DNA of 44,631 nucleotides from Chromatiales bacterium. GTDB taxonomy: Bacteria; Pseudomonadota; Gammaproteobacteria; SZUA-152. The DNA lies in contig JALTPW010000949.1 of the NCBI GenBank assembly GCA_026999335.1, positions 1 to 44,631 on the forward strand. The letters run 5' to 3'. Made by a program: the position numbers and the translations under genes. How positions within the stretch are numbered: position 1 is the stretch's first letter; each line of letters opens with the position of its first letter. This document shows, in pieces, positions 1,924 through 44,631 of the stretch. The notes below the pieces were generated by a model, which saw only the letters and a list, made by a program, of their open reading frames with translations, did not search any database and was not told where the DNA came from.

Positions 1924-2048
1924 GACCTCTATTACTAATATACCTCTTTCTCCTTCTAAGGATGACCTTAATCTTCCTATATGCGAAGAATCCTTTATTT
2001 CATTCGTTTCGAGAATTTATTCACCGCAGCAGTCACAATAACGTTTGA

Positions 2049-2432
2049 TCATTTTTTCACCTCAATCACCTTCAAATAAATGTCATACATCGACAGGTAG
2101 TGGTCCAGCATCTCCCGATACTTCCCATCCCCCGGCCCCATGATCAACGCACAAGCCGGGTGCTTGCCAGTCATCAGGGCATACTATCGGGCCTGGCTAA
2201 TGCACTCCTTCCATTTCGGCGCAAAATCGAACTCCACCGCGAACCGGGCGGTAACACAATCTACTCTTCCCCCGCGCACACGTACCTCCATCTTGCCTCC
2301 CTGCGCGTTGCACCACTGAGTTTGATAGTGGCGTTCGTTGGCGGCCTGTACTGGCGTTATGTAGGACACTGCAATCAGCGATAGCGCAAAGGCAGTGCCG
2401 AGGATGGATAGCGCGATTTCTTTCACAGTCAT
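2049..2432 (-). pseudogene. nonsense-interrupted, diverged copy of the exported 127-aa protein gene at 39241..39624
   Basis: same frame, start and stop position as copy 2, but TAG at 2184-2186 where copy 2 has TGG; frame stays open and homologous after the stop. Confidence 0.7.
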
Positions 2433-2629
2433 CTCCTTACAAACATAAAATGTGTTCTCGGGCTGAACATCGCTCCTAGCGATCCTTTCGTTACGTCTTT
2501 GGCAAGTCCTTTTTTGCATAGCGCTCGTAATGTTGATAGCGATTCGCCCAGGTCATAAGCGCATTTTGGAACGCTACTGAGTTTGCCAAGCGCTCTGCGT
2601 TGCGCTTTTGTCAATGCGATCTCTTTCAT
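2429..2629 (-). CDS. hypothetical protein (66 aa), possibly winged-helix-like
   Basis: ORF track; stop overlaps next start (ATGA) with AAGGAG embedded in its 3' end. Confidence 0.6.
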   Translation of the reverse strand: MKEIALTKAQRRALGKLSSVPKCAYDLGESLSTLRALCKKGLAKDVTKGSLGAMFSPRTHFMFVRR

Positions 2630-2680
2630 GATTGCTTCTCGGTGCAGAGAGAAACTAAGCTATGTATCAACCTTTCAAGT

Positions 2681-2896
2681 TTAGTCATTATCATTCCCGT
2701 CAAACGTTGAGATCAGCATGGCCGCGTTGCGTATCCGCTCGTTATTCATGATTCGCGCATCCCGTCTGCCCGTGTTATATTCACTTTGCCGGAACCATGC
2801 GACGCTGTGCGGCGCATAACATCGCCAGTTCGATCCATCGCCGCCGAACTCATGCGCGGCCTTGACGGCCTCAACGATTGATCCCTTTTCAGTCAT
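2681..2896 (-). CDS. hypothetical acidic protein (71 aa)
   Basis: ORF 2681..2941 trimmed to MTEKGS start preceded by GGAGGCACC; overlaps upstream gene end by 8 nt. Confidence 0.55.
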   Translation of the reverse strand: MTEKGSIVEAVKAAHEFGGDGSNWRCYAPHSVAWFRQSEYNTGRRDARIMNNERIRNAAMLISTFDGNDND

Positions 2897-3053
2897 TTTT
2901 TGGTGCCTCCAATTTGTTGTATCTGGCCACGGCCTCCTCAATTAACTGAGAGGCAGGCCGGTCCTGTTCACGAAGCCACCGCACAATCCACGGGGCCAGC
3001 TTGTATGACACGGCGATCTTCCGCTCGCCGGGCGGGAGCTTGGGGCGAGGCAT
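2889..3053 (-). CDS. ribbon-helix-helix (CopG/Arc-like) DNA-binding protein (54 aa)
   Basis: ORF trimmed to MPRPKLPPGERKIAVSYKLAPWIVRWLREQDRPASQLIEEAV: beta-strand then two helices, typical RHH layout. Confidence 0.55.
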   Translation of the reverse strand: MPRPKLPPGERKIAVSYKLAPWIVRWLREQDRPASQLIEEAVARYNKLEAPKND

Positions 3054-3055
3054 GG

Positions 3056-3352
3056 TTACACCTCGCCATTCAGCACTTGCCACAGCGCCCACGCCTCGGG
3101 GCTGATGAATTTGGAGTATTCCAGATACCCCTTTGCCCGGCGAGCCGTGCAGGCTTCGCACTTGTGGCGCTCCGGCAACAGGTCGTAGAAGGTGGCCTTC
3201 ACGCGGTCGGCCTTCTTGCGGCGGTCGAAAGAAAACGGCTCCCGTGCGTAGCCTCGGCCTTTCAGCGGATTGGCCGGCAGGGGCGGCAGGTTGGTGATGC
3301 CGCCGTTGGCCTTGATCAGTTCAACGGCGACGGCTGCTTGTGTGGTGCTCAT
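3056..3352 (-). CDS. hypothetical protein (98 aa)
   Basis: ORF trimmed to MSTTQ start, which forms an ATGA overlap with the upstream stop. Confidence 0.6.
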   Translation of the reverse strand: MSTTQAAVAVELIKANGGITNLPPLPANPLKGRGYAREPFSFDRRKKADRVKATFYDLLPERHKCEACTARRAKGYLEYSKFISPEAWALWQVLNGEV

Positions 3353-3729
3353 AAGATGTCCTCCCAATTAGTCTTGACGAACCCCAGGTGGCGGAACACC
3401 GCCGTTTTGCGGACGTTGCCGTCCTCGTCCGTCACCTCAACGGACTCGCGGCGGCTGAACGCATAGACGGGCGTGACGTCCATGTGCCGGAGCACACGCT
3501 CCAGCTCGGGTATGAAGAAGGGTGCGCCGCCGATCATGGCGGCATCGGCCCCGGCGTCGCGGGCCATGCGGGCAACGGCGTGCGCCGTGGCGTTGAGATC
3601 GTCCGGCGTGGGGATCTCATCGAAAGTAAGCCAACGGGACAGCTCCCCCCGCTGTTCGTCGGGCAGGTCAACCACGCCCGCCTCGACTTGTTCAGGCGTG
3701 GCCTGGTGTTGGGTAAGGTTGATGATCAT
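3349..3729 (-). CDS. hypothetical protein (126 aa), Rossmann-like look
   Basis: ORF trimmed to MIINLTQHQATPEQ start (ATGA overlap with upstream stop); no secure family assignment. Confidence 0.6.
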   Translation of the reverse strand: MIINLTQHQATPEQVEAGVVDLPDEQRGELSRWLTFDEIPTPDDLNATAHAVARMARDAGADAAMIGGAPFFIPELERVLRHMDVTPVYAFSRRESVEVTDEDGNVRKTAVFRHLGFVKTNWEDIL

Positions 3730-4580
3730 TTCTGATCCTCCATTTTCAGTTTGCATGAATCCACATTTAGCCGGGGGCCGTCGTCAAGCTCTACCGGCAC
3801 GATCCCGTCAGTGCGGGTATAGACGACCGCACCGGCTTTGCCCTTGTATGGGCCGTCGAGGACGATCACACGGTCACCCTCCTTTGCTTCGAGGCCAGCA
3901 CGCGGCGACCAGTCCATGATGTGGTATTTGTTCATGTCGCCATAGTAGATGGCGTCGTCGCCAATCCGGCACAGCCACGCGTCGCCGCTCTCCGTCCAAA
4001 GGACGCCGTCCCAGCTAGCCGTCTTGTCGGCCGCCATAATGGGCTCTTGCCCGTCGGCGCAGATGAAGCCGAGCGAGCGGAAGGTGGAGCAGCCACCGGA
4101 ATAGCTGCCGTCAATCGAGGACGTGTGGCCCTCGTTGTGGCCGGCGATGCCGACCTGTACGACCGGCATACCCCGGCGGTCATACCACTTGGTTTCCCGC
4201 ACTTTTAGCGCGGGATTGTGCGGGTCTTTCCCGACCCGCACGGCCACCGCCCGGATGGCCGGGTCGATCTCCGGCTCCGGCTCCGGCTCCGGCTCGGGTT
4301 TGGCCTGGGCGGGCTCCGGTGCTTCGCCCAGCTCGGCGGCCAGTTCATCGACCGCCGCCGAGAAGGCCTGGTACTTGGCCTCAGCCGCGCCAGTACCGTC
4401 GCACAGGCGGTCCTCGGCGGCCTTATCTTCCAGCCGTGCCAGTACCTTACGGGCGCGGGCCAGCAGCGCAGGAGCCTCAATGGCCGCCCGCGTGACGATC
4501 CCCATGGACCGCGCACCGCGAACACTCGCGGCGGCGGCCCTGACGGCTTTGGCGCTTATTTGTGCTGCCGTCTTTTTCAT
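3726..4580 (-). CDS. hypothetical protein with PEPEPEPEPE linker and C-terminal KOW-like motif (284 aa; alternative start 4607)
   Basis: ORF 3726..4607; second ATG at 4580 has GAGGAA upstream; GDRVIVLDGPYKGKAGAVV resembles a KOW motif. Confidence 0.65.
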   Translation of the reverse strand: MKKTAAQISAKAVRAAAASVRGARSMGIVTRAAIEAPALLARARKVLARLEDKAAEDRLCDGTGAAEAKYQAFSAAVDELAAELGEAPEPAQAKPEPEPEPEPEIDPAIRAVAVRVGKDPHNPALKVRETKWYDRRGMPVVQVGIAGHNEGHTSSIDGSYSGGCSTFRSLGFICADGQEPIMAADKTASWDGVLWTESGDAWLCRIGDDAIYYGDMNKYHIMDWSPRAGLEAKEGDRVIVLDGPYKGKAGAVVYTRTDGIVPVELDDGPRLNVDSCKLKMEDQK

Positions 4581-4613
4581 GCCTTGTTCCTCTTGTTTGA
4601 TTGCCATGCTAAA

Positions 4614-4641
4614 AGTATATACCCTTATCTATAATTGTCAA
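4614..4641 (-). promoter_or_regulatory. near-consensus sigma70-type promoter reading leftward into the GC-rich cassette
   Basis: minus strand TTGACA (4641-4636), 16-nt spacer, TATACT (4619-4614); inside a 74-bp AT-rich gap. Confidence 0.55.
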
Positions 4642-4681
4642 TACTTTTTTGCAAATTATTAACCGCTATTTTTGTGTTGTT

Positions 4682-4879
4682 TTATTTCTTAGTGTTTTGT
4701 GTGGTTTTAGAGGCAACCGGCCACCAGCCGTCGCAGTTGTTGGGGTCCGTAGCCGGGCCGCGCTTGATGAAGAAGGACCAGGCTTGCATCGGGTCAGGGC
4801 GCGTGCCGCTGTCCAGGTGCCTGCGGCAACGCTTGCGATGCGGGCAGGTATCGAGGGCGCACATGTCATAGTCAGGCAT
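4682..4879 (-). CDS. hypothetical Cys/His-containing small protein (65 aa)
   Basis: ORF 4682..4888 trimmed to MPDYDMC start with GAGAGG 9 nt upstream. Confidence 0.5.
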   Translation of the reverse strand: MPDYDMCALDTCPHRKRCRRHLDSGTRPDPMQAWSFFIKRGPATDPNNCDGWWPVASKTTQNTKK

Positions 4880-5066
4880 GGCTATCATCCTCTCTGACGC
4901 TGCTCCACCACCACCATACGCCGCAGTAGTGGCAGAACAGTCGGGCGGTCGATCCCATCCGGGTATGCCCGCACCTTGGACACTTGTCGTACTCCCACAT
5001 CGTCGTAGCGTTGCCGGGAAGGTCTGCCGTTTTGCCGTCGGGTTTTAGCTTATGGTTGCTCGACAT
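4872..5066 (-). CDS. zinc-ribbon-like small protein (64 aa)
   Basis: CPRCG ... CHYCG pair of CxxC motifs; start uncertain (22-nt overlap with upstream gene). Confidence 0.5.
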   Translation of the reverse strand: MSSNHKLKPDGKTADLPGNATTMWEYDKCPRCGHTRMGSTARLFCHYCGVWWWWSSVREDDSHA

Positions 5067-5278
5067 TCAAACGCATCCAGTATATCTGGCAGATAGGTCC
5101 ACTTGTCTGGCAAGTCATCGTAAGCAAGTGGACAATCGTCTATGTCTGTCCAGACGCCTTCTGGCCAGTATAAAAGCACTTCGGGTATGCGCATTTCCCA
5201 CACGCACAGCACCGCGATGCAACTCTGTATCTCCGGCACGTGCGGCGGTTCAGTAATTGGTTTCCAGTCGGCTTTCAT
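5045..5278 (-). CDS. hypothetical protein, DUF551-like (from memory)
   Basis: 77 aa; N-terminal W-x-P-I-x-E-x-P pattern common in small phage early proteins. Confidence 0.5.
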   Translation of the reverse strand: MKADWKPITEPPHVPEIQSCIAVLCVWEMRIPEVLLYWPEGVWTDIDDCPLAYDDLPDKWTYLPDILDAFECRATIS

Positions 5279-5501
5279 CCCTACCTACCTCCCTTAATGA
5301 ATTTTCCCAACCAACGGACCTTGTAATAAAGTAGTGCTTCCCCCCTATGGCCATCCACATAGAAAAGTATTCATTTTTCTTAGGTTTTTTCTCGAATCCC
5401 CGCCATTCTCCGTCTGCGTCTAAAGCTATCCAGTTAACCCAATCGGGTGCTTCGTACTCTTTTCCGTCTATTGTTACTTTCTTTATTTCTTTTTTGCTCA
5501 T
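5250..5501 (-). CDS. hypothetical protein (83 aa)
   Basis: ORF 5250..5579 trimmed to MSKKEIKK start just after the upstream TAG. Confidence 0.55.
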   Translation of the reverse strand: MSKKEIKKVTIDGKEYEAPDWVNWIALDADGEWRGFEKKPKKNEYFSMWMAIGGKHYFITRSVGWENSLREVGRDESRLETNY

Positions 5502-5503
5502 AC

Positions 5504-5815
5504 CTAGTCCTTCATAGTTACGGCAGGAATAGCCGCCCATCCACTTCCTACCTCCGTCGTGACATAAGCGACGCTGCACCAGTCGCCTACTCTTAGGCGC
5601 GGATCAAACTGCAACATAGTCACGCTACCTAAATCGCTCCCTGAGCTTAGTTCAGGCGCATCGCAGGGTGGGACGGCAACGACCAGATTTCTTGCTGCTG
5701 GCTTTGCGACTACATAGGCGCGTGGGATCACATGGCGAATTTTCTTTACCGTGTATCCCTGTTCTTCATACCACTCACGGATAGCGCGGCGGGTTGCTCG
5801 TTCAAGTTTGGTCAT
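5504..5815 (-). CDS. hypothetical protein (103 aa), full-length MTKLERATR paralog
   Basis: ORF track; start overlaps upstream stop (TAATG). Confidence 0.6.
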   Translation of the reverse strand: MTKLERATRRAIREWYEEQGYTVKKIRHVIPRAYVVAKPAARNLVVAVPPCDAPELSSGSDLGSVTMLQFDPRLRVGDWCSVAYVTTEVGSGWAAIPAVTMKD

Positions 5816-6018
5816 TATCCGTCGTCCTCATCCAGCCATCGCTCGTATGCAGATACCGCGTTTACGTGTGCTTTTTCAAACTTTTCTATGCCTCCGTTCA
5901 CCTCGCGAAACTCTCGCCATACTTGCGCTTTAACAAGGTCAGAACTCGCTTCGGCGATCCTCCTTAGCAGCGCTAGTTCAGTGCTATAGATCAGTTCCTG
6001 GTCATCGTTATCGGTCAT
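5815..6018 (-). CDS. hypothetical acidic protein (67 aa)
   Basis: ORF 5815..6114 trimmed to MTDNDDQ start, 1 nt after the stop of the 34-aa ORF. Confidence 0.5.
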   Translation of the reverse strand: MTDNDDQELIYSTELALLRRIAEASSDLVKAQVWREFREVNGGIEKFEKAHVNAVSAYERWLDEDDG

Positions 6019-6019
6019 G

Positions 6020-6124
6020 TTATTTCTCGCGCGGAATCGCATGGTGGATTTTATTCGCCGTGTACACCTGCTCTTCACGCCATTCCCGGATTGCTTTTCT
6101 TGTTGCTCGTTCAAGTTTGGTCAT
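6020..6124 (-). CDS. 34-aa truncated paralog of the 5504..5815 protein (possibly a remnant)
   Basis: MTKLERATRKAIREWREEQVYTANKIHHAIPREK versus MTKLERATRRAIREWYEEQGYTVKKIRHVIPRAY; 25-nt exact DNA repeat at both starts. Confidence 0.35.
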   Translation of the reverse strand: MTKLERATRKAIREWREEQVYTANKIHHAIPREK

Positions 6125-6311
6125 TACTCACACCTATTTGCTCCCAAACCCTGTTTGCTTCCAAATTTAGAAACCAGCGATAAAAGTTGTAGGCTAATAT
6201 ACGTTGTTTTGATGTACGCATAACCTCGTCACCGCTAGCAAACCACCAGATAGTGAAGAAGGCGCGCCAATGATCTTTATACACACAAGATTTTTTGTGC
6301 TTATTCCTCAT
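6111..6311 (-). CDS. hypothetical protein (66 aa), weak call
   Basis: ORF 6111..6365 trimmed to MRNKHK (ATGA-type overlap with upstream stop); odd W-rich composition, AT-rich DNA. Confidence 0.3.
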   Translation of the reverse strand: MRNKHKKSCVYKDHWRAFFTIWWFASGDEVMRTSKQRILAYNFYRWFLNLEANRVWEQIGVSNDQT

Positions 6312-6534
6312 CCCCTTTTCCTCGCTCGTCAGTGAAGTCTCCTGGCTTGCATTGCAGCTCATCACCTACTTCACGACACAGACATAGGTGTATTGTCTCT
6401 GTGCCATAAGGCTCACCAAAAGCTGGGCACCAATCTCCACACCGGTCACCGTCGCAATGAATACAGAATTGGGATTTCATTTTCCCGGCCCGTTCTAACC
6501 ATAGCCAGCCATCCTCATCGATCTTGATTTTCAT
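6301..6534 (-). CDS. Cys-rich small protein, paralog A (77 aa)
   Basis: MKIKIDEDGWLWLERAG ... CGDWCPAFGEP; ends DFTDERGKGDEE. Confidence 0.6.
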   Translation of the reverse strand: MKIKIDEDGWLWLERAGKMKSQFCIHCDGDRCGDWCPAFGEPYGTETIHLCLCREVGDELQCKPGDFTDERGKGDEE

Positions 6535-6829
6535 TTTCACCCTCCCCAGCTTCCATTTTCTTCTCACCACGAAAATCTACAAGATCTTCTTTTGGGATAT
6601 AGAATGCGGTATTATGGCATAATGTTAACTGCACGCGCGGTACCAGTGTAGAATCTGTGTCATTATCAATAATCTCCTCAGAGAAGAACACAGGCTCGCC
6701 AAAATGCGGACACCAGTCCCCGCATGAAGTCGTCATCCCTATCGCAAATGAGAATGGGCATGTCTGCTGGCGGTAAATACCGGCTCTCTCTATGTGAAGC
6801 CTGCCGTCTTCGTCAATTAGTACCTTCAT
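6515..6829 (-). CDS. Cys-rich small protein, paralog B (104 aa)
   Basis: ORF 6515..7072 trimmed to MKVLIDEDGRLHIERAG ... CGDWCPHFGEP. Confidence 0.6.
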   Translation of the reverse strand: MKVLIDEDGRLHIERAGIYRQQTCPFSFAIGMTTSCGDWCPHFGEPVFFSEEIIDNDTDSTLVPRVQLTLCHNTAFYIPKEDLVDFRGEKKMEAGEGENENQDR

Positions 6830-7109
6830 CTTCTTTTCCTCGCTCGTCGGTGAAGTCGTTATCTCTATCTGGGCCGACGCTGTACTTACCATCTTGTGAT
6901 AGCTTGAGGTCCGGTATCGAGCAAACGTCGCCGGCCATCGTGTGCCACAGTAGGTGCTGGCGAATCTCGAAGGCCATAACTGACGCTGTTCGCCAGTTTG
7001 GTTTTCCATTGATAAGCATTTCATCCTTTGCCCGTTCATCACACCAGGCTTCCAGTTTCTCGATGCGATCAAGCAGTTCGTTTGCTAGCTTGGGACTTAT
7101 CTCTTTCAT
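6813..7109 (-). CDS. hypothetical protein (98 aa)
   Basis: ORF track; ends DFTDERGKEDEGTN, the same tail as paralog A. Confidence 0.6.
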   Translation of the reverse strand: MKEISPKLANELLDRIEKLEAWCDERAKDEMLINGKPNWRTASVMAFEIRQHLLWHTMAGDVCSIPDLKLSQDGKYSVGPDRDNDFTDERGKEDEGTN

Positions 7110-7687
7110 GCAGCATTTACCTCAATTATCTGCTCAATAATCGGACGCCATGTGCGCGACCACTCCAGTGCATCATCATCCATTGACGCGATGCGATCAT
7201 CATCGAAGCCCCGCCATTCTTCGATGCTGTGCTGTTCATAACCTATTGCCATTACATCCTTGGTTAAGACAATCGGCCAGGGGTCGGTCTGTATGGTCTT
7301 AATTTCTTTTCTATTGCCGATGACGTGGTGTAACTTAGCATCTCGTAGATCAGCATCGCGCAGACTGGCAAAGCCCAGATTAGCGTAGCGCAGATCGGCG
7401 CAGCTCAGATTGGCATCGCGCAGATCGGTGAAGCGCAGATCGGCAGAGTACAGTTCGACGTAGCTCAGATTGGCAGAGTACAGATCGACGTAGCGTAGAT
7501 CTGCATCGCGCAGATTGGCGTAGTTCAGATTGGCAGAGTGCAGATCGGCGTAGCGCAGATCGGTGAAGCGCAGATTGGCTCTTTCCGGTTTCGCGCCATA
7601 ATGGGCATGATGCGGTAACCCTCGCTCTGCCAGCCACGCTTGATGAGGTGTGTACCAGTCAAATTTATATAAGTGTGCCAATTTCAT
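7106..7687 (-). CDS. pentapeptide-repeat protein (193 aa)
   Basis: 17 uninterrupted A(D/N)LxX-type pentads from ANLRF to AKLHH, then a 60-aa non-repeat C-terminal domain. Confidence 0.85.
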   Translation of the reverse strand: MKLAHLYKFDWYTPHQAWLAERGLPHHAHYGAKPERANLRFTDLRYADLHSANLNYANLRDADLRYVDLYSANLSYVELYSADLRFTDLRDANLSCADLRYANLGFASLRDADLRDAKLHHVIGNRKEIKTIQTDPWPIVLTKDVMAIGYEQHSIEEWRGFDDDRIASMDDDALEWSRTWRPIIEQIIEVNAA

Positions 7688-8027: not shown

Positions 8028-8104
8028 TGGTGCGGGTAGCAGGATTCGAACCTGCGACCACTCGCTCCCAAAGCGAGTGCTCTACCAGACTGAGCTATAC
8101 CCAC
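8028..8104 (-). tRNA. tRNA-Pro (anticodon UGG), CCA encoded
   Basis: hand-folded 77-nt cloverleaf: acceptor GTGGGTA/TACCCGC, anticodon stem CTCGC/GCGAG with loop TTTGGGA, T-loop GGTTCGAATCC, 3' ACCA. Confidence 0.85.
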
Positions 8105-11622: not shown

Positions 11623-12264
11623 TCAAAACTTATAATTAAAGCTGATCGCATAATCCAGCGAACTAAAATTCCTGTCGATGCCCTGCTCCCACCATCCAAC
11701 ACCAGCATCTAACCAGACCTGGCGATCAACACGCAGGTATTCAGATATACGCATCGACCGATAACCAAGAGAAAAGCCAACGCTGAGCCGCCCGGTGATA
11801 GGCTTGTCGATCTCAATCCCAATCGACGCGGCGATAGTGTCATCGACTTCGATCAAATATGAATCGAAGTTAAACGGTGTCCCTTCCATCGAAAAGCCAT
11901 AGCGGGAATTGAAGTAGTAATAGAGACCTTCGTTCCAGTCATGCCGCCCTGATGGATTGGTCGAGACGAAGTAATAACCCGCCTGCGCGAACAGGCGGAC
12001 GTGGGGGGTGAGTTCGTGCGTGATGCCGACGCCAAGCCCGGTCATCTTCAAATCGTAAGCGCCCCAGATCGGGACGATCCGAGTTTGTTCCTGCGAGATA
12101 AACAAATAGCTATCGTCTTTGTGGTAACTGATCTGAACCCCATACCAGGCCGTAGTCTGATAAGCATCATCGTCTGTTAGGCGAGAATGTGAGATCAAAT
12201 CTACCGACACTTCGGCCTGAGCTACAGAAGTCAGAAGAAGTAAAACAAGTGTCATCCATTTCAT
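11623..12264 (-). CDS. outer-membrane beta-barrel protein with signal peptide
   Basis: MKWMTLVLLLLTSVAQA signal peptide; alternating aromatic/hydrophobic strands; C-terminal ...SFNYKF with terminal Phe. Confidence 0.7.
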   Translation of the reverse strand: MKWMTLVLLLLTSVAQAEVSVDLISHSRLTDDDAYQTTAWYGVQISYHKDDSYLFISQEQTRIVPIWGAYDLKMTGLGVGITHELTPHVRLFAQAGYYFVSTNPSGRHDWNEGLYYYFNSRYGFSMEGTPFNFDSYLIEVDDTIAASIGIEIDKPITGRLSVGFSLGYRSMRISEYLRVDRQVWLDAGVGWWEQGIDRNFSSLDYAISFNYKF

Positions 12265-19102: not shown

Positions 19103-20638
19103 ATGGCTATCGCCCATGTCTCAACGGTCGGATATAACAGTACGTCCGACAGGGTAACGTGGAATATCGGCAGCATTGTTATTGTGTCTGCGGGTGTTGA
19201 CCGCCTCATGGTAGTTGACGCCACTACGGAGGACTCAAGCGGCGGTGTCGATATTGTTGTGCAGAGTGTTGTACTAGACCCGGCAGGGTTGGCGATCAAT
19301 CTTACCAAAGCGATAGAAGATCAGATCGTCACCTCTGGCACATGGGGCAATTCATCGTCCATGTGGTATTTGTTGGATGCGGACTATCCAGCAGACGGAA
19401 CATATGACCTTGAGATTACTTATGCCGGATCTGTCACGGAGATAGGCGCGTCTGTTAGCCAATATACTGGCGTTAAACAGGGGCCTCCAGAAGTAACTGC
19501 TTCTAATACAGCGCTATCAACCACAACTGTATCTACTTCTATTACTACCCTAACTGATGGCGCATGGGTGATGGACACAGCCTGTCATGGGGACGGGGTG
19601 GCAACATGGTCGGCAGATGTGGCGCAAAATGAGCGCGATGTAAGGGATGCTGATTCTCATTGGCATGGCGCAAGTGACAAGTCAGTGGCAACTGCTGGGG
19701 CTGCTACAATGTCATGGACGGCAAGCGCATCTGTTAATAGGTTAGTGGGTGTTGCGGCGGCATGGGCTCCCGCATCTGGGTCGGGGGCAGCGCTACAAGG
19801 CGCAGCGTCTATAAGCATTCTTGCCGCGGCGGCTTTAACGACCGGGATCAACCTTGCCGCCGCAGTCTCGATCACTGACACGGCTAGCGCCGATCTCACA
19901 ACCGGGATCAACCTTGAGTCGGCGACAACCATTAGCGTTCAGGCTGGGGCTGATTTATCCACAGATATTCGATTATCTGCGGATACCAGCATCTCAGATC
20001 TCGTATCAGCCGACCTGACTACAGGGATCGCATTAGTCGCTAATACCAGCGAGAGCTTTGCTGTTACGGCGGATCTGACGGCAGGAGGTGGAGCCGCAGC
20101 CCTAGAGGGCGCGACGAATATTACCAATACCACCGTCGCGGACCTGACCACAGGAATCCCGTTAAACGGCGATACCAGCCTGACGGTATTCTCGGGCGCC
20201 GATCTGACTACTCAGATCCAGATGGCGGCCGCTGCTAGCGAGACAATCCAGACCGCGGCAGATCTCAGCACTGGGATCTCTCTGGATGGGGCGACAAGCG
20301 TCACATTCCAGACGGACGCCTCACTTGAAGCTCCGATCAATCTCGCTGGGAATGTTGGCATAACGGTCCAATCAGCCGCTGACTTGACGACAGGCATAGA
20401 ACTGGCGTCTGACGCGGTTATCTCGGTTGATTCAGATGCAGATTTAACTACTGCGATCAACCTGGCCGGCGGGACAAATATCACCTTCCAGGCGACGGCG
20501 CTACTCACCGTCGGCGAAGTTGTGGTCCCAGAGAGCCAGATCTACGCCATCGAGGCAGAAAACCGAACCTATGCAATCGCAGAAGATGATCGGACCTATG
20601 CGATTGAGAGTGAGAACAGAACCTACCCCGTAACGTAA
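19103..20638 (+). CDS. tandem-repeat protein (511 aa), probable fibre or beta-solenoid-like virion protein
   Basis: about 230-aa N-terminal domain, about 12 x 20-aa repeats (consensus xSIxVxxxADLTTGIxLxxx), then 3 x E-x-E-N-R-T-Y-A-I. Confidence 0.7.
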   Translation: MAIAHVSTVGYNSTSDRVTWNIGSIVIVSAGVDRLMVVDATTEDSSGGVDIVVQSVVLDPAGLAINLTKAIEDQIVTSGTWGNSSSMWYLLDADYPADGTYDLEITYAGSVTEIGASVSQYTGVKQGPPEVTASNTALSTTTVSTSITTLTDGAWVMDTACHGDGVATWSADVAQNERDVRDADSHWHGASDKSVATAGAATMSWTASASVNRLVGVAAAWAPASGSGAALQGAASISILAAAALTTGINLAAAVSITDTASADLTTGINLESATTISVQAGADLSTDIRLSADTSISDLVSADLTTGIALVANTSESFAVTADLTAGGGAAALEGATNITNTTVADLTTGIPLNGDTSLTVFSGADLTTQIQMAAAASETIQTAADLSTGISLDGATSVTFQTDASLEAPINLAGNVGITVQSAADLTTGIELASDAVISVDSDADLTTAINLAGGTNITFQATALLTVGEVVVPESQIYAIEAENRTYAIAEDDRTYAIESENRTYPVT

Positions 20639-39185: not shown

Positions 39186-39240
39186 CCGAGTTATCCGCTC
39201 AGCTTGCGTACCACGCGTTACCTTATGGTGTCTAGCCAAA

Positions 39241-39624
39241 TCACTTTGTCACCTCAATCACCTTCAAATAAACGTCATACATCGACAGGTAGTGATCTAG
39301 CATCTCCCGATACTTCCCATCCCCCGGCCCCATAATTAACGCACAAGCCGGGTGCTTGCCGGTCATTAGCGCATACCACCGGGCCTGGCTAATGCACTCT
39401 TTCCACTTCGGCGCGAAGTCGAACTCCACCGCGAACCGGGCCGTAACGCAATCCACGCGCCCGCCGCGGACACGGACCTCCATCTTGCCTCCCTGCGCGT
39501 TGCACCACTGGGCTTGATAGTGGCGTTCGTTGGCGGCCTGTACTGGCGCGATATAGGACACTGCGATCAGGGATAGCGCGAAGGCAGTGCCGAGGATGGA
39601 TAGCGCGATTTCTTTCACAGTCAT
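39241..39624 (-). CDS. exported or membrane-anchored 127-aa protein (intact copy), possible restriction-endonuclease-like core
   Basis: ORF 39241..39711 trimmed to MTVKEIALSILGTAFALSLIAVSYIAPVQA (ATGA overlap, AAGGAG); RVDCVTARFAVEFDFAPKWKE motif. Confidence 0.6.
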   Translation of the reverse strand: MTVKEIALSILGTAFALSLIAVSYIAPVQAANERHYQAQWCNAQGGKMEVRVRGGRVDCVTARFAVEFDFAPKWKECISQARWYALMTGKHPACALIMGPGDGKYREMLDHYLSMYDVYLKVIEVTK

Positions 39625-39821
39625 CTCCTTACAAACATAAAATGTGTTCTCGGGCTGAACATCGCTCCTAGCGATCCTTTCGTTACGTCTTTGGCAAGTC
39701 CTTTTTTGCATAGCGCTCGTAATGTTGATAGCGATTCGCCCAGGTCATAAGCGCATTTTGGAACGCTACTGAGTTTGCCAAGCGCTCTGCGTTGCGCTTT
39801 TGTCAATGCGATCTCTTTCAT
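39621..39821 (-). CDS. hypothetical protein (66 aa)
   Basis: identical to 2429..2629 (+37,192). Confidence 0.6.
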   Translation of the reverse strand: MKEIALTKAQRRALGKLSSVPKCAYDLGESLSTLRALCKKGLAKDVTKGSLGAMFSPRTHFMFVRR

Positions 39822-39872
39822 GATTGCTTCTCGGTGCAGAGAGAAACTAAGCTATGTATCAACCTTTCAAGT

Positions 39873-40088
39873 TTAGTCATTATCATTCCCGTCAAACGTT
39901 GAGATCAGCATGGCCGCGTTGCGTATCCGCTCGTTATTCATGATTCGCGCATCCCGTCTGCCCGTGTTATATTCACTTTGCCGGAACCATGCGACGCTGT
40001 GCGGCGCATAACATCGCCAGTTCGATCCATCGCCGCCGAACTCATGCGCGGCCTTGACGGCCTCAACGATTGATCCCTTTTCAGTCAT
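39873..40088 (-). CDS. hypothetical acidic protein (71 aa)
   Basis: identical to 2681..2896. Confidence 0.55.
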   Translation of the reverse strand: MTEKGSIVEAVKAAHEFGGDGSNWRCYAPHSVAWFRQSEYNTGRRDARIMNNERIRNAAMLISTFDGNDND

Positions 40089-40245
40089 TTTTTGGTGCCT
40101 CCAATTTGTTGTATCTGGCCACGGCCTCCTCAATTAACTGAGAGGCAGGCCGGTCCTGTTCACGAAGCCACCGCACAATCCACGGGGCCAGCTTGTATGA
40201 CACGGCGATCTTCCGCTCGCCGGGCGGGAGCTTGGGGCGAGGCAT
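40081..40245 (-). CDS. ribbon-helix-helix DNA-binding protein (54 aa)
   Basis: identical to 2889..3053. Confidence 0.55.
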   Translation of the reverse strand: MPRPKLPPGERKIAVSYKLAPWIVRWLREQDRPASQLIEEAVARYNKLEAPKND

Positions 40246-40247
40246 GG

Positions 40248-40544
40248 TTACACCTCGCCATTCAGCACTTGCCACAGCGCCCACGCCTCGGGGCTGATGA
40301 ATTTGGAGTATTCCAGATACCCCTTTGCCCGGCGAGCCGTGCAGGCTTCGCACTTGTGGCGCTCCGGCAACAGGTCGTAGAAGGTGGCCTTCACGCGGTC
40401 GGCCTTCTTGCGGCGGTCGAAAGAAAACGGCTCCCGTGCGTAGCCTCGGCCTTTCAGCGGATTGGCCGGCAGGGGCGGCAGGTTGGTGATGCCGCCGTTG
40501 GCCTTGATCAGTTCAACGGCGACGGCTGCTTGTGTGGTGCTCAT
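40248..40544 (-). CDS. hypothetical protein (98 aa)
   Basis: identical to 3056..3352. Confidence 0.6.
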   Translation of the reverse strand: MSTTQAAVAVELIKANGGITNLPPLPANPLKGRGYAREPFSFDRRKKADRVKATFYDLLPERHKCEACTARRAKGYLEYSKFISPEAWALWQVLNGEV

Positions 40545-40921
40545 AAGATGTCCTCCCAATTAGTCTTGACGAACCCCAGGTGGCGGAACACCGCCGTTTT
40601 GCGGACGTTGCCGTCCTCGTCCGTCACCTCAACGGACTCGCGGCGGCTGAACGCATAGACGGGCGTGACGTCCATGTGCCGGAGCACACGCTCCAGCTCG
40701 GGTATGAAGAAGGGTGCGCCGCCGATCATGGCGGCATCGGCCCCGGCGTCGCGGGCCATGCGGGCAACGGCGTGCGCCGTGGCGTTGAGATCGTCCGGCG
40801 TGGGGATCTCATCGAAAGTAAGCCAACGGGACAGCTCCCCCCGCTGTTCGTCGGGCAGGTCAACCACGCCCGCCTCGACTTGTTCAGGCGTGGCCTGGTG
40901 TTGGGTAAGGTTGATGATCAT
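40541..40921 (-). CDS. hypothetical protein (126 aa)
   Basis: identical to 3349..3729. Confidence 0.6.
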   Translation of the reverse strand: MIINLTQHQATPEQVEAGVVDLPDEQRGELSRWLTFDEIPTPDDLNATAHAVARMARDAGADAAMIGGAPFFIPELERVLRHMDVTPVYAFSRRESVEVTDEDGNVRKTAVFRHLGFVKTNWEDIL

Positions 40922-41772
40922 TTCTGATCCTCCATTTTCAGTTTGCATGAATCCACATTTAGCCGGGGGCCGTCGTCAAGCTCTACCGGCACGATCCCGT
41001 CAGTGCGGGTATAGACGACCGCACCGGCTTTGCCCTTGTATGGGCCGTCGAGGACGATCACACGGTCACCCTCCTTTGCTTCGAGGCCAGCACGCGGCGA
41101 CCAGTCCATGATGTGGTATTTGTTCATGTCGCCATAGTAGATGGCGTCGTCGCCAATCCGGCACAGCCACGCGTCGCCGCTCTCCGTCCAAAGGACGCCG
41201 TCCCAGCTAGCCGTCTTGTCGGCCGCCATAATGGGCTCTTGCCCGTCGGCGCAGATGAAGCCGAGCGAGCGGAAGGTGGAGCAGCCACCGGAATAGCTGC
41301 CGTCAATCGAGGACGTGTGGCCCTCGTTGTGGCCGGCGATGCCGACCTGTACGACCGGCATACCCCGGCGGTCATACCACTTGGTTTCCCGCACTTTTAG
41401 CGCGGGATTGTGCGGGTCTTTCCCGACCCGCACGGCCACCGCCCGGATGGCCGGGTCGATCTCCGGCTCCGGCTCCGGCTCCGGCTCGGGTTTGGCCTGG
41501 GCGGGCTCCGGTGCTTCGCCCAGCTCGGCGGCCAGTTCATCGACCGCCGCCGAGAAGGCCTGGTACTTGGCCTCAGCCGCGCCAGTACCGTCGCACAGGC
41601 GGTCCTCGGCGGCCTTATCTTCCAGCCGTGCCAGTACCTTACGGGCGCGGGCCAGCAGCGCAGGAGCCTCAATGGCCGCCCGCGTGACGATCCCCATGGA
41701 CCGCGCACCGCGAACACTCGCGGCGGCGGCCCTGACGGCTTTGGCGCTTATTTGTGCTGCCGTCTTTTTCAT
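40918..41772 (-). CDS. hypothetical protein with PE-repeat linker and KOW-like motif
   Basis: identical to 3726..4580 (alternative start 41799). Confidence 0.65.
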   Translation of the reverse strand: MKKTAAQISAKAVRAAAASVRGARSMGIVTRAAIEAPALLARARKVLARLEDKAAEDRLCDGTGAAEAKYQAFSAAVDELAAELGEAPEPAQAKPEPEPEPEPEIDPAIRAVAVRVGKDPHNPALKVRETKWYDRRGMPVVQVGIAGHNEGHTSSIDGSYSGGCSTFRSLGFICADGQEPIMAADKTASWDGVLWTESGDAWLCRIGDDAIYYGDMNKYHIMDWSPRAGLEAKEGDRVIVLDGPYKGKAGAVVYTRTDGIVPVELDDGPRLNVDSCKLKMEDQK

Positions 41773-41805
41773 GCCTTGTTCCTCTTGTTTGATTGCCATG
41801 CTAAA

Positions 41806-41833
41806 AGTATATACCCTTATCTATAATTGTCAA
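41806..41833 (-). promoter_or_regulatory. near-consensus sigma70-type promoter (copy 2)
   Basis: identical to 4614..4641. Confidence 0.55.
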
Positions 41834-41873
41834 TACTTTTTTGCAAATTATTAACCGCTATTTTTGTGTTGTT

Positions 41874-42071
41874 TTATTTCTTAGTGTTTTGTGTGGTTTT
41901 AGAGGCAACCGGCCACCAGCCGTCGCAGTTGTTGGGGTCCGTAGCCGGGCCGCGCTTGATGAAGAAGGACCAGGCTTGCATCGGGTCAGGGCGCGTGCCG
42001 CTGTCCAGGTGCCTGCGGCAACGCTTGCGATGCGGGCAGGTATCGAGGGCGCACATGTCATAGTCAGGCAT
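41874..42071 (-). CDS. hypothetical Cys/His-containing small protein
   Basis: identical to 4682..4879. Confidence 0.5.
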   Translation of the reverse strand: MPDYDMCALDTCPHRKRCRRHLDSGTRPDPMQAWSFFIKRGPATDPNNCDGWWPVASKTTQNTKK

Positions 42072-42258
42072 GGCTATCATCCTCTCTGACGCTGCTCCAC
42101 CACCACCATACGCCGCAGTAGTGGCAGAACAGTCGGGCGGTCGATCCCATCCGGGTATGCCCGCACCTTGGACACTTGTCGTACTCCCACATCGTCGTAG
42201 CGTTGCCGGGAAGGTCTGCCGTTTTGCCGTCGGGTTTTAGCTTATGGTTGCTCGACAT
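42064..42258 (-). CDS. zinc-ribbon-like small protein
   Basis: identical to 4872..5066. Confidence 0.5.
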   Translation of the reverse strand: MSSNHKLKPDGKTADLPGNATTMWEYDKCPRCGHTRMGSTARLFCHYCGVWWWWSSVREDDSHA

Positions 42259-42470
42259 TCAAACGCATCCAGTATATCTGGCAGATAGGTCCACTTGTCT
42301 GGCAAGTCATCGTAAGCAAGTGGACAATCGTCTATGTCTGTCCAGACGCCTTCTGGCCAGTATAAAAGCACTTCGGGTATGCGCATTTCCCACACGCACA
42401 GCACCGCGATGCAACTCTGTATCTCCGGCACGTGCGGCGGTTCAGTAATTGGTTTCCAGTCGGCTTTCAT
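42237..42470 (-). CDS. hypothetical protein, DUF551-like
   Basis: identical to 5045..5278. Confidence 0.5.
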   Translation of the reverse strand: MKADWKPITEPPHVPEIQSCIAVLCVWEMRIPEVLLYWPEGVWTDIDDCPLAYDDLPDKWTYLPDILDAFECRATIS

Positions 42471-42693
42471 CCCTACCTACCTCCCTTAATGAATTTTCCC
42501 AACCAACGGACCTTGTAATAAAGTAGTGCTTCCCCCCTATGGCCATCCACATAGAAAAGTATTCATTTTTCTTAGGTTTTTTCTCGAATCCCCGCCATTC
42601 TCCGTCTGCGTCTAAAGCTATCCAGTTAACCCAATCGGGTGCTTCGTACTCTTTTCCGTCTATTGTTACTTTCTTTATTTCTTTTTTGCTCAT
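42442..42693 (-). CDS. hypothetical protein (83 aa)
   Basis: identical to 5250..5501. Confidence 0.55.
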   Translation of the reverse strand: MSKKEIKKVTIDGKEYEAPDWVNWIALDADGEWRGFEKKPKKNEYFSMWMAIGGKHYFITRSVGWENSLREVGRDESRLETNY

Positions 42694-42695
42694 AC

Positions 42696-43007
42696 CTAGT
42701 CCTTCATAGTTACGGCAGGAATAGCCGCCCATCCACTTCCTACCTCCGTCGTGACATAAGCGACGCTGCACCAGTCGCCTACTCTTAGGCGCGGATCAAA
42801 CTGCAACATAGTCACGCTACCTAAATCGCTCCCTGAGCTTAGTTCAGGCGCATCGCAGGGTGGGACGGCAACGACCAGATTTCTTGCTGCTGGCTTTGCG
42901 ACTACATAGGCGCGTGGGATCACATGGCGAATTTTCTTTACCGTGTATCCCTGTTCTTCATACCACTCACGGATAGCGCGGCGGGTTGCTCGTTCAAGTT
43001 TGGTCAT
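42696..43007 (-). CDS. hypothetical protein (103 aa)
   Basis: identical to 5504..5815. Confidence 0.6.
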   Translation of the reverse strand: MTKLERATRRAIREWYEEQGYTVKKIRHVIPRAYVVAKPAARNLVVAVPPCDAPELSSGSDLGSVTMLQFDPRLRVGDWCSVAYVTTEVGSGWAAIPAVTMKD

Positions 43008-43210
43008 TATCCGTCGTCCTCATCCAGCCATCGCTCGTATGCAGATACCGCGTTTACGTGTGCTTTTTCAAACTTTTCTATGCCTCCGTTCACCTCGCGA
43101 AACTCTCGCCATACTTGCGCTTTAACAAGGTCAGAACTCGCTTCGGCGATCCTCCTTAGCAGCGCTAGTTCAGTGCTATAGATCAGTTCCTGGTCATCGT
43201 TATCGGTCAT
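43007..43210 (-). CDS. hypothetical acidic protein (67 aa)
   Basis: identical to 5815..6018. Confidence 0.5.
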   Translation of the reverse strand: MTDNDDQELIYSTELALLRRIAEASSDLVKAQVWREFREVNGGIEKFEKAHVNAVSAYERWLDEDDG

Positions 43211-43211
43211 G

Positions 43212-43316
43212 TTATTTCTCGCGCGGAATCGCATGGTGGATTTTATTCGCCGTGTACACCTGCTCTTCACGCCATTCCCGGATTGCTTTTCTTGTTGCTC
43301 GTTCAAGTTTGGTCAT
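43212..43316 (-). CDS. 34-aa truncated paralog
   Basis: identical to 6020..6124. Confidence 0.35.
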   Translation of the reverse strand: MTKLERATRKAIREWREEQVYTANKIHHAIPREK

Positions 43317-43503
43317 TACTCACACCTATTTGCTCCCAAACCCTGTTTGCTTCCAAATTTAGAAACCAGCGATAAAAGTTGTAGGCTAATATACGTTGTT
43401 TTGATGTACGCATAACCTCGTCACCGCTAGCAAACCACCAGATAGTGAAGAAGGCGCGCCAATGATCTTTATACACACAAGATTTTTTGTGCTTATTCCT
43501 CAT
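43303..43503 (-). CDS. hypothetical protein (66 aa), weak call
   Basis: identical to 6111..6311. Confidence 0.3.
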   Translation of the reverse strand: MRNKHKKSCVYKDHWRAFFTIWWFASGDEVMRTSKQRILAYNFYRWFLNLEANRVWEQIGVSNDQT

Positions 43504-43726
43504 CCCCTTTTCCTCGCTCGTCAGTGAAGTCTCCTGGCTTGCATTGCAGCTCATCACCTACTTCACGACACAGACATAGGTGTATTGTCTCTGTGCCATA
43601 AGGCTCACCAAAAGCTGGGCACCAATCTCCACACCGGTCACCGTCGCAATGAATACAGAATTGGGATTTCATTTTCCCGGCCCGTTCTAACCATAGCCAG
43701 CCATCCTCATCGATCTTGATTTTCAT
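43493..43726 (-). CDS. Cys-rich small protein, paralog A
   Basis: identical to 6301..6534. Confidence 0.6.
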   Translation of the reverse strand: MKIKIDEDGWLWLERAGKMKSQFCIHCDGDRCGDWCPAFGEPYGTETIHLCLCREVGDELQCKPGDFTDERGKGDEE

Positions 43727-44021
43727 TTTCACCCTCCCCAGCTTCCATTTTCTTCTCACCACGAAAATCTACAAGATCTTCTTTTGGGATATAGAATGCG
43801 GTATTATGGCATAATGTTAACTGCACGCGCGGTACCAGTGTAGAATCTGTGTCATTATCAATAATCTCCTCAGAGAAGAACACAGGCTCGCCAAAATGCG
43901 GACACCAGTCCCCGCATGAAGTCGTCATCCCTATCGCAAATGAGAATGGGCATGTCTGCTGGCGGTAAATACCGGCTCTCTCTATGTGAAGCCTGCCGTC
44001 TTCGTCAATTAGTACCTTCAT
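43707..44021 (-). CDS. Cys-rich small protein, paralog B
   Basis: identical to 6515..6829. Confidence 0.6.
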   Translation of the reverse strand: MKVLIDEDGRLHIERAGIYRQQTCPFSFAIGMTTSCGDWCPHFGEPVFFSEEIIDNDTDSTLVPRVQLTLCHNTAFYIPKEDLVDFRGEKKMEAGEGENENQDR

Positions 44022-44301
44022 CTTCTTTTCCTCGCTCGTCGGTGAAGTCGTTATCTCTATCTGGGCCGACGCTGTACTTACCATCTTGTGATAGCTTGAG
44101 GTCCGGTATCGAGCAAACGTCGCCGGCCATCGTGTGCCACAGTAGGTGCTGGCGAATCTCGAAGGCCATAACTGACGCTGTTCGCCAGTTTGGTTTTCCA
44201 TTGATAAGCATTTCATCCTTTGCCCGTTCATCACACCAGGCTTCCAGTTTCTCGATGCGATCAAGCAGTTCGTTTGCTAGCTTGGGACTTATCTCTTTCA
44301 T
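44005..44301 (-). CDS. hypothetical protein (98 aa)
   Basis: identical to 6813..7109. Confidence 0.6.
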   Translation of the reverse strand: MKEISPKLANELLDRIEKLEAWCDERAKDEMLINGKPNWRTASVMAFEIRQHLLWHTMAGDVCSIPDLKLSQDGKYSVGPDRDNDFTDERGKEDEGTN

Positions 44302-44631
44302 GCAGCATTTACCTCAATTATCTGCTCAATAATCGGACGCCATGTGCGCGACCACTCCAGTGCATCATCATCCATTGACGCGATGCGATCATCATCGAAG
44401 CCCCGCCATTCTTCGATGCTGTGCTGTTCATAACCTATTGCCATTACATCCTTGGTTAAGACAATCGGCCAGGGGTCGGTCTGTATGGTCTTAATTTCTT
44501 TTCTATTGCCGATGACGTGGTGTAACTTAGCATCTCGTAGATCAGCATCGCGCAGACTGGCAAAGCCCAGATTAGCGTAGCGCAGATCGGCGCAGCTCAG
44601 ATTGGCATCGCGCAGATCGGTGAAGCGCAGA
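44298..44631 (-). CDS. pentapeptide-repeat protein, 3' part only (start lies beyond the window end)
   Basis: identical to 7106..7439. Confidence 0.8.
   Translation of the reverse strand, partial: LRFTDLRDANLSCADLRYANLGFASLRDADLRDAKLHHVIGNRKEIKTIQTDPWPIVLTKDVMAIGYEQHSIEEWRGFDDDRIASMDDDALEWSRTWRPIIEQIIEVNAA

Follow-up and report, generated by a model that had tools for sequence, protein, structure and literature searches.

A phage early operon pairs a Csx20-family protein with a ring-nuclease companion family in a probable counter-defence module

Contig JALTPW010000949.1 (assembly GCA_026999335.1, Chromatiales bacterium), whose full 44,631 nt were analyzed and are referred to here as the window, contains one 37,192-bp phage unit (2048-39239) with a block of seven genes, g1 to g7, as the final part of its leftward early operon (Table 1). 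On balance, this block is probably a phage counter-defence operon directed against cyclic oligoadenylate (cOA) signaling, with a Csx20 homolog, g2, as its core and a layout like that of an anti-CRISPR (Acr)/anti-CRISPR-associated (Aca) operon. The original prediction for this DNA had proposed an accessory system serving defence, anti-defence or host modulation, none of whose products could be assigned to a pathway. The Csx20-family homology of g2 supports the anti-defence branch of that proposal and supersedes the latter statement for g2, while the idea of a fixed block has to be given up.

The central gene, g2, encodes a putative ring nuclease for cyclic tetra-adenylate (cA4) of 126 amino acids (aa). 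It matches the NCBIfam CAS_Csx20 model (NF040559) with an E value of 1.9e-8 and 34.7 bits over model positions 3-122 of 124, and the PADLOC Csx20 models with an E value of 1.4e-8; all 35 of the 35 aligned g2 relatives match the Csx20 model as well (best E 2.5e-12). More than 700 homologs were found (703), of which at least 120 of the best scoring are labeled PF27247 (Pfam “MJ1673”) and are 50-60% identical to g2, and the membership of g2 in this family is read from these precomputed labels on its homologs together with the motifs that it keeps. The family is conserved at 45-60% identity over Proteobacteria, candidate phyla radiation (CPR) bacteria, Bacteroidota and archaea, and g2 retains every invariant residue: N4, T6, Q7, H8, the GGAP at 67-70, R94, E95, K108 and H114. 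The AlphaFold2 (AF2) model of the monomer has a predicted local distance difference test (pLDDT) score of 94.6. Its top fold match in the PDB is the cA4-bound CARF domain of Cam1 (E 8e-3, template modeling (TM) score 0.40), with the Crn1 ring nuclease Sso2081 ranked 36th, giving weak but consistent structural support for a CARF-derived fold. The sole match of the g2 profile among PDB sequences, to Pumilio, was judged spurious.

The small protein MJ_1673 has been linked to type III-A CRISPR systems (PMC3973734), and Csx20, which is also found in five cultured phage genomes, has been shown biochemically to be a cA4 ring nuclease (10.1101/2024.09.24.614671). Like this CRISPR-associated Csx20 (NF040559), of about 125 aa, g2 gives a full-length profile match, has a predicted CARF-derived α/β fold and would be expected to cleave cA4 without metal. 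It differs in being phage encoded, in a tightly conserved branch that is common in viral contigs. The g2 gene sits in a phage early operon and not in a type III CRISPR-Cas locus, and its relatives are found in at least 192 viral contigs (IMG/VR). Array-like repeats lie within 8 kb of close g2 relatives at 1 of 63 genome loci and 3 of 80 viral loci, and the family is carried mainly on mobile elements. The role proposed here resembles that of AcrIII-1/Crn2, a viral enzyme that destroys cA4 to blind type III effectors, but g2 is unrelated to it in fold and family, and none of the seven products matches PF08960 (DUF1874, AcrIII-1/Crn2). The small ring nuclease Crn4/Unk01 of phages and plasmids is likewise of a fold unrelated to that of g2.

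The characterized Csx20 is cA4 specific at low enzyme concentration and degrades cyclic tri-adenylate (cA3) at high enzyme concentration (10.1101/2024.09.24.614671). The second of these properties would suit a different target, in which g2 degrades or sequesters cA3 or cA4 from cyclic-oligonucleotide-based antiphage signaling systems (CBASS) or other cOA systems, or acts as a non-catalytic sponge. The literature raises viral nucleases that act on both CBASS and type III CRISPR, sponges are common in phages, and g2 gives faint matches to CBASS cyclase models. These cyclase matches are, however, far below threshold, and the conserved His, Lys, Arg and Glu of g2 look catalytic; together with the cA4 specificity of the characterized enzyme at low concentration, this makes a CBASS-directed enzyme or a sponge unlikely.

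The gene immediately ahead of g2, g1 (284 aa), belongs to a family that recurs beside ring-nuclease genes. Its N domain comprises three helices (residues ∼6-86) modeled by AF2 with pLDDT above 90, compared with 70 for the whole protein, and is followed by a Pro-Glu linker, a β-rich middle domain that is poorly modeled, and a C-terminal KOW domain. Both the PEPEPEPEPE linker and the KOW-like motif had been reported in the original prediction. The linker is present, and the KOW assignment is borne out by Pfam (PF00467, residues 243-263, 22.9 bits against a gathering cut-off of 22.3) and by Foldseek, which finds NusG/Spt5/L24 and phage KOW proteins with probability 0.99-1.0. The KOW domain was the sole match in fold searches of the PDB and of viral models, and it is present in this g1 lineage only. 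Elsewhere in the family the N domain, of ∼85 aa with the motif TAKxxRAAAASVxGARSMGIxTxASxxAP, is fused through Pro/Ala/Glu-rich linkers to variable C-terminal domains or stands alone as proteins of 80-90 aa.

Homologs of g1 number three in 5.8 billion proteins by word-indexed search and 45 representatives in 1.84 billion by HMMER, and exact look-up returned no record; the full alignment is too variable for a pattern search. Searches for the N domain in 185,579 species genomes and, by tblastn, in cultured phages and in plasmids had no match; the BLAST low-complexity filter was on and may have partly masked the Ala-rich query. PADLOC gave zero matches on long g1 relatives, and no description of the family was found in the literature searched.

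A gene of ring-nuclease type lies near the g1-family gene in about 13 of 14 lineages (Csx20-like in 9-10, DUF1874 in two and Crn4 in one). This tally is approximate, counts the window, L001 and L002 separately although they are close relatives, and takes L160/161 as the lineage without such a gene. The Csx20-like gene immediately adjoins the g1-family gene in the window and at loci L001, L002, L003-5, L019, L028, L052/53, L155 and L157. At L154 (stand-alone) and L164 (full-length, beside an integrase) the overlapping neighbor is a STIV_B116-like gene of PF08960 (DUF1874; the AcrIII-1/Crn2 family, also PADLOC Csx16), and at L156 a PADLOC Unk_01 gene (E 1e-22) lies two genes from the g1-N-domain gene. 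Unk_01 is a ring nuclease now named Crn4, whose phage form Crn4b has a 60-80-aa N-terminal extension (10.1101/2025.07.17.665281). No clear ring nuclease stands beside the g1-family gene at L160/161 or in the P0137 contigs, one having only a faint AcrIF11-like neighbor. Stop and start codons often overlap between the paired genes. Because no more than a few hundred of 2.9 million viral contigs carry a Csx20-like gene, the pairing of this family with ring nucleases of three unrelated folds is far from chance. Since the three ring-nuclease families differ in fold, we suggest, tentatively, that ring nucleases of mobile elements have an undescribed partner in the g1 family, which might supply a second anti-type III CRISPR activity alongside cOA degradation or might represent a new, non-helix-turn-helix class of anti-CRISPR-associated regulator.

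The block is preceded by its own promoter. The minus-strand sigma-70-type sequence TTGACA-16-TATACT described originally was confirmed at 4641..4614, where it matches 11 of 12 consensus positions, and it is repeated at 41833..41806. Also as described, the surrounding gap is AT rich (26% G+C at 4601-4700) and the first ATG (4607) begins 7 nt past the −10 element. Among the 12 promoter-like sites in 13.5 kb, this promoter scores highest. When the window is aligned with L001, L086 and L087, AAAAAAGTATTGACA...GGGTATATACTTTT and a downstream CAAACxAGAGG are invariant, and the promoter is unchanged in all three relatives including those with a different gene downstream. The alignment shows no conservation of ATG 4607, and the conserved AGAGG precedes ATG 4580; translation of g1 therefore likely starts at ATG 4580, and a leaderless mRNA from ATG 4607 was rejected because that codon is not conserved.

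An imperfect palindrome, AAAAGTATTGACAATTAT / ATAAGGGTATATACTTTT, with 18-nt arms that are 78% complementary around a 2-nt centre, covers both promoter hexamers and includes a perfect 8-mer, GTATATAC, over the −10 element. Its outer arms are invariant in four related contigs, and a 16-mer from it is found, across the window, only at the two cassette promoters. We regard this palindrome as a candidate operator that would be bound by a protein. Just upstream of the −35 element is a 15-nt direct repeat (4670-4684 / 4695-4709, TAAAACAACACAAAA / TAAAACCACACAAAA on the minus strand, 25-nt spacing), which overlaps the end of a 68-aa gene and of which one copy (TAAAACCACA) is retained in L086 and L087. 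It could be a UP-like element or a second binding site.

The candidate autoregulator, g4, is a basic protein of 54 aa with a sequence pattern like that of ribbon-helix-helix (RHH) proteins: a basic N terminus, a KIAVSYKL strand and two helices. Copies that are 92-98% identical lie in L001, L002, L086 and L087 behind differing cargo. L001 has the promoter and 5′ untranslated region (UTR) followed by g1-g2-g3-g4-g5-g7. L002 has g1-g2, a g3 remnant and g4-g5-g7. L086 and L087 have the promoter and UTR with an unrelated 210-aa protein, g4 (92% identity), g5 and other genes. The promoter, 5′ UTR and g4 behave as a portable control unit with swappable cargo, as would be expected of an autoregulated anti-defence operon. 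Around it, g5 travels with g4, g3 is dispensable, and g6, which is absent from L001 and L002 and has no tblastn match in any fetched locus, is an insertion specific to this phage; relatives of g7 are 94-99% identical in L001 and L002, with a 125-aa counterpart in L086. The conception of one discrete seven-gene system that co-occurs as a block in other phages does not survive this comparison, as gene content varies among relatives that lack g6 (L001), g3 and g6 (L002) or g1-g3 (L086).

The earlier idea of a self-promoted block under a small regulator holds in that promoter and g4 are portable with swapped cargo; for the RHH fold claimed for g4, no support came from Pfam, NCBIfam, a PDB sequence search or an Aca14 profile comparison, none of which gave a match. 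Against Aca14, BLASTP returned an E value of 0.37 and hhalign a probability of 0.1%. We do not call g4 a member of the RHH or Aca14 families, as BLASTP, profile and PDB-sequence comparisons show no relationship. The homolog search found a single cluster, which allowed no deep alignment of g4, and its fold and DNA binding are predictions from the sequence pattern. A relative of g4 (42-53% identity) directly follows Csx20-like genes in the unrelated viral contigs L032 and L035. The L035 promoter, TTGCAT-16-TATACT, carries a similar TATACTTT, and a shared operator was not convincing on comparison of the two promoters. Variable first genes under a conserved promoter-operator, together with a conserved small basic protein, are what characterizes acr-aca operons.

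At L003-L005, L019 and L028 the third gene, after the Csx20-like gene, encodes a conserved 61-aa basic protein (KGGKREGAGRKSK...VQVGIRV...), which is unrelated to g4 yet alike in size and position. In both lineages, a small putative DNA-binding gene would close the module. Between the shared promoter and g4, the 210-aa protein (L086 545-1177, L087 328-960) stands in the position of g1-g2-g3. PHROGs gave no match for it, the contig's precomputed annotation gives it no Pfam family, and the C-terminal end of an apparent C5 DNA methyltransferase lies upstream of its gene. The logic of the operon makes it a candidate anti-defence gene.

An 8-nt overlap joins g4, small and basic, to the likewise small g5, and the two travel together, as would also be expected of a toxin-antitoxin pair in which g4 were an RHH antitoxin and g5 its toxin, with unrelated genes upstream. 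Scans with Pfam, NCBIfam and PADLOC matched neither g4 nor g5 to any family of toxins or antitoxins, and the same is true of g3. At 71 aa, g5 is near neutral (isoelectric point (pI) 6.1) and not markedly acidic as originally described, and the two genes are fourth and fifth in the operon instead of directly behind the promoter. We consider such a pair highly improbable and rejected it.

Homologs of csx20 have been described in phage anti-defence operons controlled by Aca14, an RHH protein whose binding site is an inverted repeat over the −10 element (10.64898/2026.07.27.740549, July 2026 preprint). We located the csx20-aca14 operon in Pasteurella phage Pm86 (MH238467), where the Csx20-like open reading frame (ORF) is 53% identical to g2 residues 70-118; the published operon therefore uses the Csx20-like family of g2. 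This ORF (L153 309-509) is unannotated, lies ahead of aca14 and encodes 66 aa from a TTG, corresponding to the C-terminal half only, and the Pm86 copy may be truncated or non-functional. The csx20-aca14 operon (Pasteurella multocida prophage/Pm86) and the block described here share a phage Csx20-family gene, a strong promoter, an AT-rich inverted repeat over the hexamers with a GTATAT core, and then a small putative DNA-binding protein. In contrast to TGTATAT-N6-ATATACA in Pm86, the repeat here has 18-nt arms over both hexamers; the block also carries g1 and g3 in addition, and its regulator candidate, the fourth gene, has no homology to Aca14. Earlier publications have already predicted phage Csx20 and csx20 operons under RHH control. 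New here are a regulator candidate other than Aca14, a different operator geometry, a full-length Csx20-like gene and, above all, the g1 companion family.

In a counter-defence operon of this kind, host sigma-70 RNA polymerase would fire the near-consensus promoter soon after DNA entry, and transcription of the cassette may be supplemented by read-through from the leftward early operon. The short-leader mRNA with its Shine-Dalgarno sequence would encode g1, g2 and g3, apparently translationally coupled. CARF-derived g2 would bind and cleave cA4, and possibly cA3, from type III CRISPR Cas10 or related cyclases, whereby CARF/SAVED effectors would never be activated, and g1 would act with or beside the ring nuclease. 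As g4 accumulated, it would repress the promoter by binding the palindrome over the −35 and −10 elements. Downstream, g5-g7 would be genes of ordinary composition outside the core, and g3 and g6 optional passengers. Of this scheme, the sequence features, the g2 homology, the gene associations and the swapping of cargo are direct observations; enzymatic activity, the defence system targeted, binding by g4, the time of expression and what g1 does are inferences.

The seven ORFs of the original prediction all exist at the sizes given and are mostly chained by overlaps (ATGA at g1/g2, g2/g3 and g6/g7). Their description as a GC-rich cassette holds for g1-g4 (2889-4580) and fails for the rest. At 64.0% G+C, with 0.69-0.81 at third codon positions (GC3), g1-g4 are the richest 1692-nt interval of the 37.2-kb unit, for which the median interval is 51.8%; g5-g7 are at the genome average (51.5%). 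Two small Cys-rich genes at 4682-5066, on the other side of the promoter, are GC rich too. Their homologs also lie upstream of the promoter in L001, and their zinc-ribbon matches are weak only. Because 4682-5066 is GC rich and g5-g7 are at background, the compositional island straddles the promoter, excludes g5-g7 and does not coincide with the promoter-defined cassette.

The background composition of g5-g7 is one of several features that would be expected if the block were a mosaic of ordinary early accessory genes of no common function, in which the promoter raises expression of late-operon genes and the Csx20-like domain of g2 has decayed or been repurposed. Gene content varies among relatives, with g3 and g6 dispensable and cargo swapped; scans with Pfam, PHROGs, NCBIfam and PADLOC placed none of g3, g4, g5, g6 and g7 (five of seven products) in a family; and the total of promoter-like sites in the 13.5 kb is no higher than in shuffles. 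Decay of g2 is argued against by its retention of all invariant residues of a highly conserved family. Nor would a mosaic account for the g1-ring nuclease pairing in ∼13 lineages and with three ring-nuclease families, or for the conservation of promoter, UTR and g4 together across different cargo. We consider a mosaic unlikely.

Several observations weigh against a counter-defence operon. The 34.7 bits of g2 do not reach the equivalog cut-off of NF040559 (70 bits), and g2 is for this reason placed as a homolog and not an equivalog of Csx20, in a sister branch of the CRISPR-linked proteins; its fold matches are also weak. Beyond KOW, g1 has no recognizable catalytic or DNA-binding domain, and its distant relatives lack KOW. 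The converse of the g1 association fails, in that most viral Csx20-like genes have other, very diverse neighbors. L002 has g1-g2 without the promoter and UTR found in the window, the palindrome is imperfect and set in AT-rich DNA, and g4 matches neither an RHH nor an Aca protein.

After the phage unit, its first 5.4 kb occur again: 39240-44631 repeats 2048-7439 at 99.4% identity with an offset of 37192, and the second copy of the cassette reported originally is real. The unit is preceded by a unique segment (1-2047, 43% G+C) that carries further minus-strand genes. The 33 sites that distinguish the two copies all lie in 2052-2388, inside g7, and are mostly synonymous; between the two alleles of g7, 26 codons have changed synonymously and 5 non-synonymously. 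The 127-aa signal-peptide protein predicted earlier is intact in copy 2 only, because an in-frame stop interrupts copy 1. The 3′ part of g7 marks a recombination boundary. The duplication could stem from prophages, tandem or variant, that recombined within g7, or from an assembly path that crossed strain variants.

Late genes run rightward and end in the lysis cassette, with a holin-like gene, an endolysin (phrog_7 match) and nested Rz/Rz1-like genes to 39185, and the leftward early operon, which includes RecT-like and exonuclease-like genes, runs from ∼12.7 kb. Copy 2 of the cassette converges on and abuts the lysis genes, as the original placement at the junction of early arm and lysis cassette had it; copy 1 is not the operon end, as minus-strand genes continue in 1-2047. 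The phage is without a close cultured relative: its terminase shares only ∼52% identity with counterparts in phages of Paraburkholderia, Pseudomonas and Moraxella. Neither the cassette nor 20 kb of late genes had a megablast match among phage or E. coli genomes.

The operon-end position, and a promoter of its own that is possibly active in a lysogen, would also fit a prophage moron or defence module that benefits the host, in which g2 damps the host type III response and a secreted g7 alters the cell surface (superinfection exclusion or an immune off-switch); cellular Csx20 is an off-switch, and g7 has a signal peptide. The block resembles lambdoid morons in its own promoter, its partly atypical composition and its site at the junction of two convergent transcription units. 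Unlike them it is multigenic, its compositional island crosses the promoter, and no terminator-like site follows g7 in either copy. The classic moron definition invoked originally fails for want of this terminator. Against a benefit to the host, PADLOC finds Csx20 accessory models only and no effector, sensor or cyclase in the block; a defence system was rejected because effector and sensor are absent. No integrase or CI-type repressor was seen among the window ORFs read by eye or scanned, so that lysogeny is no more than a possibility, and g7 is a pseudogene in copy 1. We judge a host-benefit module to be quite unlikely.

Table 1. Features of the cassette and its control region, listed in the direction of transcription
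Feature	Position	Second copy	Strand	Remarks
Two small Cys-rich genes (68 and 64 aa)	4682..5066		-	Upstream of promoter; 59.5% G+C
Candidate operator, imperfect palindrome	4611..4648	41803-41840		Covers both promoter hexamers
Sigma-70-type promoter, TTGACA-16-TATACT	4614..4641	41806-41833	-	11/12 consensus match
Conserved 5′ UTR	4581..4613		-	Shine-Dalgarno AGAGG before ATG 4580; alignment of window, L001, L086, L087
g1, 284 aa	3726..4580	40918-41772	-	N domain, PEPEPE linker, β-rich middle, C-terminal KOW
g2, 126 aa	3349..3729	40541-40921	-	Putative cA4 ring nuclease, Csx20-family (Pfam PF27247 “MJ1673”)
g3, 98 aa	3056..3352	40248-40544	-	Basic (pI 9.6); in L001, 29-aa remnant in L002
g4, 54 aa	2889..3053	40081-40245	-	Basic (pI 9.9); RHH-like sequence pattern, candidate autoregulator
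g5, 71 aa	2681..2896	39873-40088	-	53.7% G+C, pI 6.1; after g4 in L001, L002, L086
g6, 66 aa	2429..2629	39621-39821	-	Basic; 46% G+C
g7, 127 aa, intact allele		39241..39624	-	Signal peptide; converges on Rz/Rz1-like end of lysis cassette
g7, diverged allele	2049..2432		-	In-frame stop 2184-2186 (W83stop)

Other genes of the phage unit were noted alongside the cassette. The leftward early operon includes a tRNA-Pro (anticodon TGG; 8028-8104, minus strand) and a 193-aa pentapeptide-repeat protein (7106-7687, minus strand) with several PHROG matches of unknown function. Pentapeptide-repeat proteins are often DNA mimics, and this protein may therefore be a further anti-restriction or anti-defence candidate. 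At 6301-7109 (minus strand) are tandem paralogous small Cys-rich genes with the common motif (K/R)IxIDEDGxLxxERAG...CGDWCPxFGEP, an 89-aa relative of which lies between g5 and g7 in L086. ORFs near these paralogs have similar acidic tails at their ends (DFTDERGKGDEE / DFTDERGKEDEG), and these repeats may act as recombination joints by which genes are shuffled. A 213-aa signal-peptide protein (11623-12264, minus strand), apparently rich in β strands, has a clear homolog directly after g7 in L086 (2440-3090), so that this accessory gene is placed differently in related phages. On the plus strand, a 511-aa protein (19103-20638) made of many tandem ∼20-aa units (..ADLTTGI.L....S..) is probably a fibre or decoration protein.

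One 2024 paper counts only three anti-CRISPR families that act on type III systems; for phage-borne Csx20, such a role has so far been a prediction. In the locus described here, a phage Csx20-like gene is intact, full length and set in a clearly laid-out operon. Its unit of promoter, operator and regulator candidate with swappable cargo offers a handle for guilt by association, as Aca genes did, by which the 210-aa protein of L086 and g3 become candidate anti-defence genes. The g1 family flags three unrelated families of ring nucleases and could mark new cOA-degrading enzymes, and g1 itself may reveal a second step in the disarming of cOA signaling by phages.

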